A stretch of 64,000 nucleotides of DNA, from positions 640,001 through 704,000 of the forward strand of contig OZ242220.1 of assembly GCA_965206745.1 (NCBI GenBank), written 5' to 3'. Each line of letters opens with the position of its first letter. Position 1 is the stretch's first letter. The stretch is from Nitrosopumilus sp. GTDB lineage: Archaea > Thermoproteota > Nitrososphaeria > Nitrososphaerales > Nitrosopumilaceae. Shown here in pieces: positions 3,057-58,503 of this stretch. A model generated the notes under the pieces. The model had not been told where the DNA came from, did not search any database, and was given only the letters and a program-made list of their open reading frames with translations. The translations under genes and the position numbers were made by a program.

Positions 3057-3821
3057 ATGACCAAACTTGAGGCAAAAAATATTGTAAAATATTTCAATCA
3101 TGACTCTCACAAACTCAAGGCACTCGGTGGCGTGAATCTAAAGGTTCAGGCAGGCGATTTTGTCTGTTTGGTCGGCCCTTCAGGCTGTGGAAAGTCCACC
3201 TTTTTACGCATAGTTGCAGGCCTGGAGAAGCCCGATGAGGGACAGATTCTCTTTGATGGTCACAATGTGACTGAGACTGGCCCTGAAAGAATCATGGTGT
3301 TCCAGGAGGGTGCCCTGTTCCCGTGGCTGAAGGTTCAGGATAATGTGGAGTTTGGACTAAAGATGGCCGGCATTCCAAAAGAGGAGAGGGCAAAGATATC
3401 CCACAGATACTTGGATATGATGCAGCTCACCAAGTTTGCAGACTCGTACACTTATCAGCTTTCAACTGGAATGAAGCAACGCGTAGCTATTGCCAGAGCT
3501 CTTGTGATGGATCCTGACGTGTTGCTAATGGACGAACCCTTTGCCGCACTTGATGCACAAACCCGTGATCTGCTGTTAGTTGAGATGCAATTGATATGGG
3601 AGAAGACAAAAAAGACCATCCTGTTTGTGACTCATAATGTCTCAGAAGCCGCAGTTCTTGGTACCAAAGTGGCAATATTTAGCAACCGCCCATCATTCAT
3701 CAAGAGGGAGGTTGACAATGACTTTCCCAGACCTAGGATAACTGACGATGAATCGTTACTCAAATTTCAGCAAGACATCTTGGCAGAACTCAGACCCGAG
3801 GTAAAGAAGAATAAAGAGTGA
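3057..3821 (+). CDS. ABC transporter ATP-binding protein (SsuB/TauB-like)
   Basis: Walker A GPSGCGKS, signature LSTGMKQR, LLMDEPF. Confidence 0.92.
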   Translation: MTKLEAKNIVKYFNHDSHKLKALGGVNLKVQAGDFVCLVGPSGCGKSTFLRIVAGLEKPDEGQILFDGHNVTETGPERIMVFQEGALFPWLKVQDNVEFGLKMAGIPKEERAKISHRYLDMMQLTKFADSYTYQLSTGMKQRVAIARALVMDPDVLLMDEPFAALDAQTRDLLLVEMQLIWEKTKKTILFVTHNVSEAAVLGTKVAIFSNRPSFIKREVDNDFPRPRITDDESLLKFQQDILAELRPEVKKNKE

Positions 3822-19534: not shown

Positions 19535-20533
19535 ATGATGAATGATTCTGCGATAAAGGAATTGCATCCTACAAAATATGTCAAATTGCCTAGTATCAAC
19601 TCTCTGTTGCAAATTTCACTTGGATTAATCCTGCTTGCCATGGTTTCATTTGCCCTAGTTTATGCTGAAACAATTACAGTAGATGTTGAAGGAACTTCAT
19701 ATGATGTTAATTATAATGCGACTGGAGTGGTTATTTCTGACATCGAGGTCGATACTCAATTTGTTGCTCTGATATTATCCGTTGACGTGTCTGAGTCAGG
19801 CGGCATGTTGGATATCGCGTTTGATCGTTCTTTCTTTGATACCACTGTTGACGGACTAGATGAAGAATTTCTTATTCTAGCAGATGGTGATGAACCAAAT
19901 TTTTCAGAAATTATAACTGATCAAAGTAGAACTTTGAGTGTTAAATTACCTGCAGGTACTGAGGAGGTTGAAATAATCGGTTCTACATTTGGTAGTCCTG
20001 CTTCTGTTGATACTCCTGATGTAGATGATGTCGCAGATCAAGCCGCAGCTGATCAGGCAGCCGCAGATCAAGCAGCGGCTGACAAGGCAGCAGCAGACCA
20101 AGCTGCCGCAGCTGATCAGGCAGCGGCAAATCAAGCAGCAGCAGACCAAGCTGTTGCAGACCAAGCTGCCGCCGACAAAGCCGCAGCTGATCAGGCAACA
20201 GCGGACAGAGCTGCTGCCGACAGAGCCGCAGCAGACCAAGCTGCCGCAGATCAAGCAGCAGCAGACCAAGCAATAGCAGACAATGCACGTTTAACAGAAT
20301 GTGGTCCTGGAACAATTCTTGAAGGTGGAGAATGTATTTTAGATCAAAGATGCGGCCCTGGAACCATTTTCAAAGATGGAGCATGTGTACTTGATTCAAC
20401 TTCACAACCCTCTGATTCTTCTCTAAACGGAATGGGCAAAGAATTGGTAATAGGATTTGTTATCGCATTTATAGTAGCAGGAATTGTCGGAGTTGTTTTC
20501 GGTATAATGGCCAAAGCCAGTAAGAGTAGCTAA
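19535..20533 (+). CDS. Membrane-anchored surface protein with Ala-rich pentapeptide repeat stalk
   Basis: Signal-like segment, beta-rich acidic domain, AADQA repeats, two CGPGT...C modules, C-terminal TM; exact start uncertain. Confidence 0.8.
   Translation: MMNDSAIKELHPTKYVKLPSINSLLQISLGLILLAMVSFALVYAETITVDVEGTSYDVNYNATGVVISDIEVDTQFVALILSVDVSESGGMLDIAFDRSFFDTTVDGLDEEFLILADGDEPNFSEIITDQSRTLSVKLPAGTEEVEIIGSTFGSPASVDTPDVDDVADQAAADQAAADQAAADKAAADQAAAADQAAANQAAADQAVADQAAADKAAADQATADRAAADRAAADQAAADQAAADQAIADNARLTECGPGTILEGGECILDQRCGPGTIFKDGACVLDSTSQPSDSSLNGMGKELVIGFVIAFIVAGIVGVVFGIMAKASKSS
20030..20287 (+). repeat. 17 copies of 15-bp degenerate repeat encoding (A/V/T/I)AD(Q/K/R/N)A
   Basis: Protein-level repeat with varied synonymous codons. 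Confidence 0.92.
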
Positions 20534-21045
20534 TCACAAGACAAGTCTTCTGAATTCATATCTTTATCAAAATCAAATCCGGATATCTGAGTTATGGTTG
20601 AATACGGGATGATTCCTAAAATTGGCATATCTGCACGTACAGCCACGATGAGCTGGTTGGGATCAAGCCTGATCGCTCCTCCGTCAAACTCAAAATCCAG
20701 CGTCATGAACAGATGCTGAGCTGCAGATAATGCTTCTGATGAAAATATTCCCTTTTGTATTGCCGATGATAGCGGGTTTATTGTGGATGGTTCTACTGAA
20801 AATGTACCTAAATCATTTCCTTCAAAATATGGAGTAATTTGTAATTTCTCAAAACTGATCCAAAACGGCATTGGATTGCAGAATTCCATCGTTCCATGGT
20901 TTGACATTGTAAAAAAACTGAATTGTCCTGGATTGTCCCATCTGTATTCTAACTGCTGCACTCCAAAGATACTCAGTCCTGAATGCGCAAATGGCAGTAT
21001 GATGAGGATGATTGCAATGATTGTGATGATTGAATGCCTGTTCAT
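20530..21045 (-). CDS. Hypothetical membrane-anchored protein
   Basis: N-terminal hydrophobic helix; coupled (ATGA) to the upstream ORF. Confidence 0.7.
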   Translation of the reverse strand: MNRHSIITIIAIILIILPFAHSGLSIFGVQQLEYRWDNPGQFSFFTMSNHGTMEFCNPMPFWISFEKLQITPYFEGNDLGTFSVEPSTINPLSSAIQKGIFSSEALSAAQHLFMTLDFEFDGGAIRLDPNQLIVAVRADMPILGIIPYSTITQISGFDFDKDMNSEDLSCD

Positions 21046-21701
21046 ATCTCCCTTTTCATTTCTTCTGGGAATCCGATGATGTTCCTTTCAAGCAAATTAT
21101 TTATGACTTTGGAAAATGTATCGTCTGATATTGCACCCTCCAGCCACCAAATTGCCACTATGGATACCCAATCTGGGATGTCAATTTCGTTCTTGTTGCT
21201 TTCATTAATTTCAAAGGGTATGTCTATTAGTCGTTTATCCACATCCCTTTGAATTGCATCTAAAAGGAATCCGTCTGAAATATATCCTGAAAGCCAACTA
21301 ATCATTATTTGCTTAATTGATCCTGAAAAGCAGATTGAATCTGATTCTACGAGTTCAAACTCTGCCGAATTTCTTGTTCCTGAATATTCCACACCTATGG
21401 TATATTTCCCTAGTGGAAATATTCCTGCCTCAAATGGTATTATTGATGGAATCGGATTTTGTAATTCTGTTATTGCTATTGGAATTGCACTGCTGCTTTT
21501 GCCTGATTCATCTATGATGTGAACTATTGCATGATCCCCTGTAACTTTAGAGACTTGAATTGTATAGAATAATTTTTCACAATAGCTGTACGTTGTTTTT
21601 TCCATTATTATCGACACTGTTGGCTCTGCATGAACTTGAGGCAAAAATGCCATAATTCCGATTACAAAAATTAACGACAATGTGAGCGTTTTGACTTTCA
21701 T
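21042..21701 (-). CDS. Secreted protein with thaumarchaeal IPxWV..WW.EG.ISD..F C-terminal module
   Basis: Signal peptide; IPDWVSIVAIWWLEGAISDDTF. Confidence 0.75.
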   Translation of the reverse strand: MKVKTLTLSLIFVIGIMAFLPQVHAEPTVSIIMEKTTYSYCEKLFYTIQVSKVTGDHAIVHIIDESGKSSSAIPIAITELQNPIPSIIPFEAGIFPLGKYTIGVEYSGTRNSAEFELVESDSICFSGSIKQIMISWLSGYISDGFLLDAIQRDVDKRLIDIPFEINESNKNEIDIPDWVSIVAIWWLEGAISDDTFSKVINNLLERNIIGFPEEMKREI

Positions 21702-21785
21702 CTTTTTTAGATCTCTTATCGTTCAATAAAAATCTCAAAAAGCAGGCATTGAGAAATCCTTTTTAATGACTTGAACCTAATTATC

Positions 21786-22174
21786 TTATCGAGTTTTCTG
21801 CGAAAGCAAATTCTTTGGGTGTGAGACTTGTAATCTCCGCTCAAGGACATCTTCATTGATCAGTGTTCTTTGGGTATGATTTATGGCCAGAAAGTCTCTG
21901 ATTATAATTGATGAAAATCTAATTACTTGCAGACTCTATTAATTACAGTATGTCATATTTATGACAACATTATTCTTGAGAAATTCTGTATGGCACAGCA
22001 GTTTATGATGAACTCGGATAATCAACAAGCCAAGCCTCTATCTGAGAGACAGGTGAAACCTATTTTTGTCGACTGTATCACAATTATGGGATTAAGAAAG
22101 GCGCATCTTCAAAATTCCCATAATGTCAATCGTGACACAATCACCAAACGCAGTAATGGCAATTTGATTGAGGC
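21786..22174 (+). ncRNA. Candidate large structured non-coding RNA (~390 nt, unidentified)
   Basis: Two long-range closing helices plus at least 6 local hairpins, GAAA tetraloops and G-U pairs on + strand; TATA-like TTTTTAAT about 20-25 nt upstream. Confidence 0.6.
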
Positions 22175-22240
22175 CATCTTTGTAGCATCAAAAACTGTTT
22201 GAACATTTCAGTTATTAAAGGGGATTTTTCTATTCCTGAT

Positions 22241-22696
22241 ATGCCTAGTTATCAGGATCAAACGTGGATAAGGCTGTGGAAAGAAAATTCCCCTGAAATA
22301 CGTCAACGTGTTGTCGGATGGCGTAAGGAAAATGCAGTTACCCGTATTGACAAGCCAAGTAGATTACAAAGGGCCAGGAGGTTGGGCTACAAGGCAAAAC
22401 AAGGCATCATTGTAGTTAGAATGCGTGTTGGTACCGGTGGTATGAGAAAACAAAGACCCACTGGTGGTAGAAGACCAAAACATCTTGGCGTTACAAGAAT
22501 TAAAGCCGATGATAGTATGAAAACTGTTGCAAATAGAAGGGTTGTTCAAAGGTATCCAAATATGAAACTTTTAGGTTCTTACTTTGTCTATAAGGATGGT
22601 AAACATTATTGGTTTGAAGTTATTTTGGCAGATCCAGATCACCCCCGAATTGCTCAGGATAAAGAATTAACTAAAAGAATTCCTAGAACGGCATAA
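22241..22696 (+). CDS. rpl15e: 50S ribosomal protein L15e
   Basis: RARRLGYKAKQG, YPNMKLLGSY, KHYWFEVILADPDHP; TATA-like TTATTAAA at 22212-22219. Confidence 0.96.
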   Translation: MPSYQDQTWIRLWKENSPEIRQRVVGWRKENAVTRIDKPSRLQRARRLGYKAKQGIIVVRMRVGTGGMRKQRPTGGRRPKHLGVTRIKADDSMKTVANRRVVQRYPNMKLLGSYFVYKDGKHYWFEVILADPDHPRIAQDKELTKRIPRTA

Positions 22697-58379: not shown

Positions 58380-58503
58380 TCCCGTGGGGCGGAATTGAAC
58401 CACCGACAACCCGGTTTCTGTATGCCTGATATGCTGTTTTTCGGTCAGCCATCTAAAGCCAACAACTACAGCCGGAAGCTCTACCAGGCTGAGCTACCAC
58501 GGG
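58380..58503 (-). tRNA. tRNA-Tyr(GTA) with 50-nt intron at 37/38 (intron 58416-58465)
   Basis: Acceptor CCCGTGG/CCACGGG, discriminator A, D arm GCTC/GAGC, CT-GTA-G, T loop TTCAATT; CTGT/ACAG central helix of a BHB-type motif; upstream TTTTTTAAT. Confidence 0.95.

Follow-up and report, generated by a model that had tools for sequence, protein, structure and literature searches.

A proposed 390-nt structured RNA upstream of rpl15e in a Nitrosopumilus genome is probably a composite of a candidate small RNA gene, spacer DNA and a small protein gene

Does the DNA upstream of the ribosomal protein gene rpl15e in Nitrosopumilus encode one large structured RNA, or are several separate elements being read as one molecule? 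We addressed this question for a span of 389 nt (positions 21786-22174, + strand) within a stretch of 64,000 nucleotides of a Nitrosopumilus sp. genome (assembly GCA_965206745.1, here G000), which we refer to as the window and whose numbering is used throughout; G and L numbers denote the genomes and loci compared. A preliminary description of this DNA had claimed the span as a ~390-nt non-coding RNA (ncRNA) of two domains, each closed by a long-range helix. Comparison with related genomes suggests that the span is probably a composite of a small RNA gene, a promoter and spacer region and a small protein gene. The proposal of an undescribed ncRNA survives in part, as such an RNA likely lies in the first ~70-95 nt; its claimed size does not, the candidate amounting to about a fifth of it.

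The model we favour comprises three units. The + strand at ~21791-21858 (perhaps to ~21880) would be a stand-alone small non-coding RNA gene of ~70-95 nt, confined to a single clade of Nitrosopumilaceae; 21883-21989 would be a spacer carrying the remains of a promoter together with a palindromic candidate operator; and 21990-22202 would be a gene encoding a C-X2-C...H-X4-H protein (zinc finger, ZnF) situated between the RNA gene and rpl15e in some lineages only. Judged from comparative sequence data, we consider this three-unit explanation, including the stand-alone nature of the small RNA, to be likely.

Composition of the 389-nt span

The following features make up the span downstream of the RNA candidate:

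21878-21898, + strand: start of a lineage-variable insert, with a degenerate copy of a ~40-nt block shared by relatives
21883-21989, no strand assigned: spacer and promoter DNA with a conserved palindrome inside
21951-21966, no strand assigned: palindrome TGTCAT-N4-ATGACA, a candidate DNA operator, invariant in 7 of 7 ZnF loci
21990-22202, + strand: ZnF open reading frame (ORF) of 70 amino acids (aa) plus stop, a damaged member of a 67-73-aa family as judged by homology and codon bias
22055-22093, + strand: out-of-frame segment within the ZnF ORF, identified by DNA, codon and protein alignments

A DNA search of 41 related genomes resulted in matches to the region in 21, all belonging to the window's genus (20 of 24 there), and in none of 16 single genomes representing other families. 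The matches form separate blocks: window ~21601-21885 is conserved, as is the DNA from 22206 onward with the rpl15e promoter and gene, and the blastn homology breaks at 21882-21885. The middle block (21883-22205) is present in a minority of loci, its gene being located on a separate contig (L028) in G005. In six loci (L007, L009, L011, L013, L020 and L022) the 5' element and the rpl15e block are only 2-20 nt apart and 21883-22205 is missing; it is because the middle is missing where the 5' element abuts the rpl15e block that we regard the span as composite.

All motifs of the preliminary description were located in the window sequence and the coordinates given for them are correct, except for the long stem, which actually occupies 21812-21821/21838-21847. 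The helix closing domain 1 (21786-21795/22011-22021) has 10 pairs and one bulge, TGC-GAAA-GCA is located at 21799-21808, the 10-bp stem contains three G-U pairs and carries a GAGA/TCTC cap (21823-26/21834-37), the hairpin TAATTGAT...ATCTAATTA is found at 21905-21925 and TGTCAT/ATGACA at 21951-21966. Within domain 2, the closing helix forms 8 of 9 pairs, the GACTGTATCAC/GTGACACAATC helix 9 of 11 and the ATTATGGGA/TCCCATAAT helix 9 of 9. The span as a whole folds no better than dinucleotide-shuffled sequences, showing a minimum free energy of -91.9 compared to -85.5 +/- 5.2 kcal/mol for the + strand (z -1.24; 14 of 100 shuffles equally good) and a z of -2.14 for the - strand. Domain 2 alone reaches z -1.68, with 12 of 200 shuffles equally good, and the spacer 21883-21989 reaches z -0.22. 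Within the span, the first ~70 nt alone fold remarkably compared to shuffles (21788-21858, + strand: z -2.45, 3 of 200 equally good; 21788-21881, - strand: z +0.52).

Scanning the whole window with Rfam 15 at gathering thresholds gave a tRNA at 58380-58503 as the sole match. At E <= 10, positions 21600-22350 resulted in eight matches, all far under the gathering scores, and at E <= 1 six homologous loci of other genera gave only one noise match to a miRNA family, so that no family is matched by the span at gathering or relaxed thresholds. RNase P RNA and signal recognition particle (SRP) RNA are likewise structured and a few hundred nt long, as was claimed for the span, and the earlier failure to match either of them is borne out by these scans. 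The archaeal RNase P RNA of this genome (RF00373) is located outside the window at G000:C1:795045-795323 (184.2 bits); its model has no match in the span, and its other match, at window ~3173-3313, reaches only 7 bits.

Domain 2 (22034-22174) is located wholly inside the ZnF ORF and we therefore reject it as an RNA domain, this ORF being under amino-acid selection. Among five copies of the gene, 60, 38 and 172 differences fall on codon positions 1, 2 and 3 (33 aligned codons), corresponding to 128 synonymous versus 74 non-synonymous codon differences, and this third-position bias indicates coding selection on the ZnF family. With 15 members the window ORF shares 44-57% identity; it is found by tblastn with protein P0001 at E 1.7e-15 and is the sole copy in this genome; its exact protein is not contained in a collection of 15 billion sequences. 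A database search with the protein of a relative resulted in 157 protein clusters at E <= 0.001, the named ones coming from Nitrosopumilus and Nitrosarchaeum, and among the 120 source names listed all are 'hypothetical' or 'uncharacterized' except for one YjgA (DUF615) label. The family pattern is C-X2-C-X10-H-X4-H, with invariant Y-F-C-R-L-C-R...H-L-Q-N-x-H-N columns in 25 members. It is the Asn-Tyr-Gly and x-His-Asn codons of this ORF that form the perfect 9-bp helix, of which relatives keep 6-8 of 9 pairs without compensation. Also the ATGATGA (22005) and CTGA (22042) that had been put forward as possible C and D boxes are codons of the ZnF ORF, the former encoding Met-Met and being shared with L004 and L037 only among six relatives.

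In the window, this gene is probably decaying or changing, its TATA region being lost and its Cys knuckle destroyed. The nine nucleotides that follow 21972 in relatives (a AAATATTAT-like TATA) are deleted, and a +2 insertion at ~22055-56 together with a -5 deletion at ~22093, 38 nt apart, shifts the frame and rewrites 13 codons. The conserved TYFCRLCRxYGIK knuckle is thereby replaced by KPIFVDCITIMGL, breaking a column conserved to >=90%: V-D-C stands in place of C-R-L-C and the first Cys is lost, whereas all 25 intact members carry C, C, H and H without exception. The shifted DNA, when translated in the ancestral frame, still yields the family residues. The C-terminal half of the window protein remains conserved. 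Compared to relatives, the window copy has 42 synonymous and 39 non-synonymous codon differences, a non-synonymous share above that among the relatives, which hints at relaxed or altered selection on ZnF in this genome.

Neither the window ORF nor an intact relative matches Pfam at E <= 1 or NCBIfam, and the AlphaFold2 model of the family (predicted local distance difference test score 49) is too poor for comparison. Classical C2H2 fingers have the spacing C-X2-4-C-X12-H-X3-5-H, whereas ZnF has 10 rather than 12 residues from C to H and no Pfam match. The ZnF family often adjoins rpl15e, and in a profile search against the Protein Data Bank it weakly resembles the first knuckle of the zinc ribbon of eL43 (L37ae), YFCEFCGKYGVK compared to YFCRLCRxYGIK, a match that is not significant (E 0.19).

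The palindrome upstream of ZnF is likewise better explained at the DNA level. All six of its pairs are unchanged, without any covariation, at each of the 7 ZnF loci, and it occurs once in the 1.86-Mb genome, upstream of the ZnF TATA region. We infer that it behaves as a DNA operator and not as an RNA helix, possibly for the ZnF protein itself.

These data bear directly on the reading of the span as one ~390-nt two-domain structured ncRNA (21786-22174). All its helices can be drawn in this genome, and a contig from a sequencing run guessed to be RNA, though not on record as such, covers 21823-21998 at a depth of 2.6, a coverage that cannot serve as evidence of expression; none of the sequencing runs containing the stretch is on record as RNA. 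The domain-1 closing helix retains 8-10 of 10 pairs in four of the six ZnF-bearing relatives, being drawable in L037 (10 of 10, three of them G-U) and with 8 of 10 pairs in three others, a point in its favour. Against this, the closing helices are not kept across the six relatives, domain 2 retaining 2-6 of 9 closing pairs and the TAATTGAT hairpin 1-6 of 8; ~320 nt are absent in most relatives keeping the 5' part; domain 2 is coding and shows the third-position substitution bias; and the span as a whole shows no folding advantage over shuffles. In none of 8 loci does the RNA 5' end pair better with the 5' region of the ZnF mRNA than with shuffled targets; even the best case is equalled by 14 of 200 shuffles. 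The closing helix of domain 1 thus joins two unrelated units, and the long-range helices that seemed to link the units as two domains are due to random pairing in AT-rich DNA. A single two-domain RNA is already contradicted by the comparative data and we consider it extremely improbable. What remains of it are the 10-bp G-U stem and the upstream TATA box, which belong to a conserved strand-specific element.

The small RNA candidate: structure, strand and distribution

The element at the 5' end of the span comprises the following parts:

21788-21803, + strand: near-invariant 5' stretch
21791-21858, + strand: core of the small RNA candidate with predicted ends, scoring 93.8 bits with covariance model R1
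21793-21798/21802-21807, + strand: hairpin H1
21812-21821/21838-21847 plus 21823-21826/21834-21837, + strand: long hairpin H2
21848-21858, + strand: U-rich tract, interrupted in this genome
21860-21873, + strand: third hairpin H3, weakly formed in this genome (UCAG/UUGG), by which the RNA may extend further 3'

Alignment of 21 sequences of the genus shows a constant order of a TATA-like box, ~22 variable bases, the invariant stretch, the long hairpin, a T-run and the third hairpin. The invariant stretch reads TATCGAGTTTTCTGCGG in most loci, the window version ending in GCGA. We built the covariance model R1 from this alignment; the structure statistics were taken from a 50-sequence alignment fitted to the model and their counts therefore lean toward structure. 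In this alignment, 89.8% of the cells of H1 and H2 pair, compared to 39.5-58.0% with the partners slid by 1-3 columns, and 31 cells carry double changes, a count that none of 500 column shuffles reaches (12.4 +/- 2.4). The double changes are found in seven pairs, all within H2, the apical stem of which keeps pairing despite its changes (pair 40-56: GC 32, AU 6, GU 6; pair 42-54: 5 double changes). H3 is better formed in relatives (UUAGC-GNU-GCUUAG) and shows compensatory changes from C-G to U-A within the genus (pair 84-88: CG 11, UA 3); it is degenerate in several ZnF-bearing loci and variable in other genera. One H1 position is mismatched in 20 of 50 sequences, and H1 is consistent with the data without being proven by them, an alternative 3-bp TGC/GCA stem being about equally good.

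The signal differs between the strands. On the + strand 93.3% (H1) and 88.2% (H2) of the cells pair, compared to 58.7% and 78.9% on the - strand, and G-U pairs account for 104 of 300 cells in H1 and for 74 of 635 in H2; it is these G-U pairs that make the structure signal strand-specific. In 47 of 50 loci, H2 is followed within 14 nt by a T-run of at least four. H1 and H2 are also obtained when homologues from other genera are folded singly (z -3.96 for L044, -3.39 for L062 and -1.95 for L052). Taken together, these sequence comparisons support the element, i.e. the first ~70-95 nt of the span, as a conserved, strand-specific structured RNA candidate.

Could the element encode a micro-protein instead, for example in the frame RVFC.SK.F.C of some relatives? 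An open Cys-containing frame does run through the element in L012, L014 and L017. In the window, though, stop codons (TGA and TAA) interrupt that frame immediately upstream, and neither ATG nor GTG nor TTG occurs in it ahead of the conserved part; differences in loop length are not multiples of three, different frames are open in different relatives, and in the alignment we see no frame kept open and no conserved start codon across the element. We consider a micro-protein the least probable of all readings of this locus.

A search with R1 through a family-wide sample of 151 genomes detected the element in 34, in exactly one copy each, distributed over six genera (g1 8/9, g20 7/7, g33 7/9, g37 2/2, g38 8/9, g30 1/5), and it is single-copy also in this genome. 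In 21 other genera none was found under stricter filters and with incomplete genomes included, which is to be read as not found rather than as absent. A scan with a 16-mer over 185,579 species genomes gave 118 stretches, of which 80, mostly bacterial, were listed; among the matches listed, the full model fits 16 of 16 Nitrosopumilaceae-type loci and none of the 64 others, which share the 16-mer by chance. The 16 are labelled Nitrosopumilus, Nitrosarchaeum, Ca. Nitrosomaritimum, Nitrosopumilaceae or Nitrososphaerota, and this specificity supports the model. Two genomes of the window's own genus (G002 and G018, each 99% complete and on one contig) give no DNA match to the region, and G018 in addition has no match to the model and no element upstream of its orthologue of the divergent neighbour gene sec219. 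This suggests loss or replacement of the RNA within the genus.

Several observations weigh against a stand-alone small RNA within a composite span. The covariation is modest: variation in H1 is confined to its 3' side, with purine changes still pairing with U, and RNAalifold on plain MAFFT alignments recovered only 13 pairs and 6 pairs. The window copy is one of the three loci lacking a T-run after H2, and at z +1.0 the close relative L007 gains nothing in folding over shuffles. The perfect linkage to sec219 described below could mean a cis role at that promoter, and our search for targets of the invariant stretch yielded no convincing one. In genome-wide duplex and complementarity scans, this stretch found two or three 12-nt matches, about as many as estimated by chance and none at a start codon, and its best duplex with the rRNA operon (-18.1 kcal/mol) is comparable to the background mean of -17.9. 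As for the protein-coding unit, the ZnF ORF of the window is open over its full length, and what we call decaying may be altered but functional.

Promoters, neighbouring genes and cis-acting alternatives

The element is flanked by the following promoter-like sequences and genes:

21045-21701, - strand: sec219, the divergent neighbour, an ORF of 219 aa with a hydrophobic N-terminus
21725-21733, - strand: TATA-like box of sec219 (AATAAAAAT as read on the + strand), a putative promoter in a conserved block of the 50-locus alignment
21758-21769, + strand: TATA-like box with transcription factor B recognition element (BRE) (CCTTTTTAATGA), the putative promoter of the small RNA, with a conserved TTTTTAA core
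22206-22240, + strand: putative rpl15e promoter block with TATA-like TTATTAAA at 22213-22220, 77-91% identical in relatives
22241-22696, + strand: rpl15e (eL15), 151 aa, Pfam PF00827 at E 3.5e-45

A TATA-like box had been noted before the span, and this box is real: in the upstream alignment, all 50 loci, drawn from six genera, have TTTTTAA at a constant distance from the invariant TATCGAG. The usual archaeal TATA-to-start spacing of ~26-27 nt would place the start of the small RNA near 21791. The second box, ~25-30 nt from the sec219 ATG, faces the opposite way. In the favoured model, the small RNA would be transcribed from its own BRE/TATA promoter arranged back to back with the promoter of a conserved secreted-protein gene. 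The notion that rpl15e has a TATA box of its own is likewise supported, the TATA-like box at 22213-22220 lying ~25 nt from the rpl15e ATG in a block conserved exactly from window 22206.

A sec219 homologue is divergently oriented just upstream of the element in 49 of 49 related loci, the element being placed ~75-82 nt from the sec219 start in all of them. This linkage suggests a second explanation, according to which there would be no functional RNA and the element would be a DNA-level regulatory sequence of the sec219 promoter, its hairpin representing a protein-bound inverted repeat; an invariant rather than covarying 5' stretch and the constant distance to sec219 would both fit. The frequent G-U pairs on one strand would, however, be mismatches in a DNA repeat (pair 31-64 is U-G in 28 of 50 sequences and pair 35-60 G-U in 15 of 50), the apical stem changes its sequence yet keeps pairing, and the second, correctly oriented TATA box is placed at a fixed upstream distance. 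Moreover, upstream of the sec219 orthologues of 18 further genomes the element is absent in 17, G054 being the only carrier. We regard a pure DNA element as improbable. The sec219 gene itself is much wider spread than the element, with homologues in 25 of 27 genera and in 139 of the 151 genomes of the family (a tally including the unpublished G117, G132 and G133). Pfam and NCBIfam assign no family to sec219, to up171 or to a 189-aa protein encoded downstream.

A further explanation looks to the opposite side: the element would act in cis on the gene downstream of it (rpl15e in the ancestral state), as a 5' leader or attenuator through which that ribosomal-protein gene would be autoregulated, hairpin and U-tract stopping transcription early. 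In 27 of 49 related loci rpl15e follows on the same strand, starting 125-139 nt past the 5' element in 21 and 175-213 nt past it in six; the hairpin is followed by a T-run in nearly all loci, as described above; and the H3 block and the block after it are best conserved where rpl15e adjoins. The element is, however, equally conserved where other DNA follows. In six loci (L004, L008, L012, L014, L017 and L037) a small ORF, the ZnF gene, comes right after the element and before rpl15e where that is in view, in another six ~1 kb of other DNA (0.9-1.5 kb) separates element and rpl15e, and in ten the downstream sequence at hand, <500 nt long in three of these, yielded no rpl15e. The downstream neighbour may be rpl15e, the ZnF gene, a 253-aa ORF or, in L006, L010, L015 and L019, genes on the opposite strand, and this variable context indicates that the element is independent of rpl15e in cis. 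In addition, rpl15e keeps its own conserved TATA-like block, and the linkage seen in 49 of 49 loci is to sec219 and not to rpl15e. An rpl15e leader is unlikely in our judgement, if marginally less so than the DNA element; the context data and the G-U asymmetry count against both.

The junction downstream of the RNA candidate has a feature of its own. A ~40-nt block (GATTTACAGTTAGAAAGTGGCT...TTGAC.TTTTTAATAG) follows H3 in L010, L015, L019, L037 and L005, whatever gene comes next, and its first 12 nt are identical to the start of the rpl15e promoter block; in L010 a transposase-like ORF fragment directly follows it. This block could be a 3' extension of the RNA, a promoter on either strand or a scar of the separation of RNA and rpl15e.

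Elsewhere in the window, the 53 nt inserted past the anticodon-loop region of the tRNA gene at 58380-58503 (- strand) presumably represent an archaeal intron. At 19535-20533 (+ strand), a 332-aa ORF is hydrophobic at both termini and contains an extended series of AADQ-like tetrapeptide repeats; it resembles a low-complexity surface protein.

Comparison with known RNA classes and implications

Trans-acting small regulatory RNAs (sRNAs) have a conserved single-stranded seed, a 3' stem-loop and a U-tail and are often bound by Hfq or Sm-like proteins. Like such sRNAs of bacteria and archaea, the candidate is ~70-95 nt long, has a putative promoter of its own and an invariant stretch beside variable stems, ends in a hairpin with a U-tract, stands alone between protein genes and is single-copy and clade-restricted. 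As expected of a stand-alone sRNA, we found a TATA-like box at fixed distance, a putative promoter, and a structure conserved on one strand in the model-fitted alignment. It differs from trans-acting sRNAs in that no target is found beyond chance and in that H1 is predicted to engage part of the invariant stretch in base pairs.

Ribosomal-protein leaders share with it the position directly upstream of a co-oriented rpl15e in 27 of 49 loci and the hairpin with U-tract; unlike in such leaders, the element is intact where rpl15e is displaced or not found (22 of 49), and rpl15e has its own promoter block. The element does not fit this class, whose members are always part of the 5' UTR of the ribosomal-protein gene they regulate: rpl15e is not always adjacent and the next gene is on the opposite strand in four loci; no eL15 leader appeared in the Rfam scans run. 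C/D and H/ACA guide sRNAs are similar in size to the candidate. C/D box sRNAs have a C box (RUGAUGA) near the 5' end and a D box (CUGA) near the 3' end, and the conserved core is without either box; the sub-threshold Rfam scores for SNORD79 (19.7 bits, gathering 47) and SNORD52 (17.9 bits, gathering 45) are weak. In H/ACA sRNAs, a hairpin encloses a guide pocket and is followed on its 3' side by an ACA box. H2 of the candidate is almost continuous, with one bulge and no pocket, and the three bases following it are mostly AAU, CAU or GCA and not a conserved ACA, so that it does not fit this class either.

The favoured model of a stand-alone small RNA would have a near-invariant 5' stretch of ~16-22 nt, partly placed in a short hairpin, followed by a G-U-rich hairpin and a U-tract. 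The RNA may be trans-acting and regulatory or may be bound by a protein, the invariant 5' stretch serving as recognition surface, either as a base-pairing seed or as a protein site, and hairpin and U-tract may provide the 3' end and stability and possibly bind an Sm-like protein (SmAP). More tentatively, the candidate might represent a new archaeal small RNA family in which the invariant stretch recognises a target or protein and in which the unbroken back-to-back linkage of the RNA with the secreted-protein operon sec219-up171 (49 of 49 loci) is functional, the RNA for example tuning that operon or the cell envelope. It is part of the same tentative proposal that the RNA may be restricted to a clade of marine and estuarine ammonia oxidisers comprising Nitrosopumilus, Nitrosarchaeum, Ca. 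Nitrosomaritimum and relatives.

Ammonia-oxidising archaea rank with the most abundant ocean microbes and, to our knowledge, almost no regulatory RNAs are known for them. The short RNA is possibly new and outside the curated families, the 390-nt RNA not being a real feature. In the portions of the literature covered by our search, we found no regulatory RNAs described for Nitrosopumilus and no description of this RNA, including in PMC13475601 and in the Red Sea metatranscriptome study PMC5069720, whose supplementary tables of transcription start sites are outside this scope and could hold a matching thaumarchaeal transcript.

As a summary, the two-domain RNA is an artefact that arose when three neighbours, a small RNA gene, a promoter and a small ORF, were taken for a single molecule, and the ZnF ORF illustrates how coding sequence can mimic long perfect helices in AT-rich genomes. 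The single-copy, promoter-equipped and structured candidate, present in at least six genera, provides a concrete and cheap target for experiments. If the proposal holds true, it would be among the few known conserved riboregulators in an ecologically dominant group.

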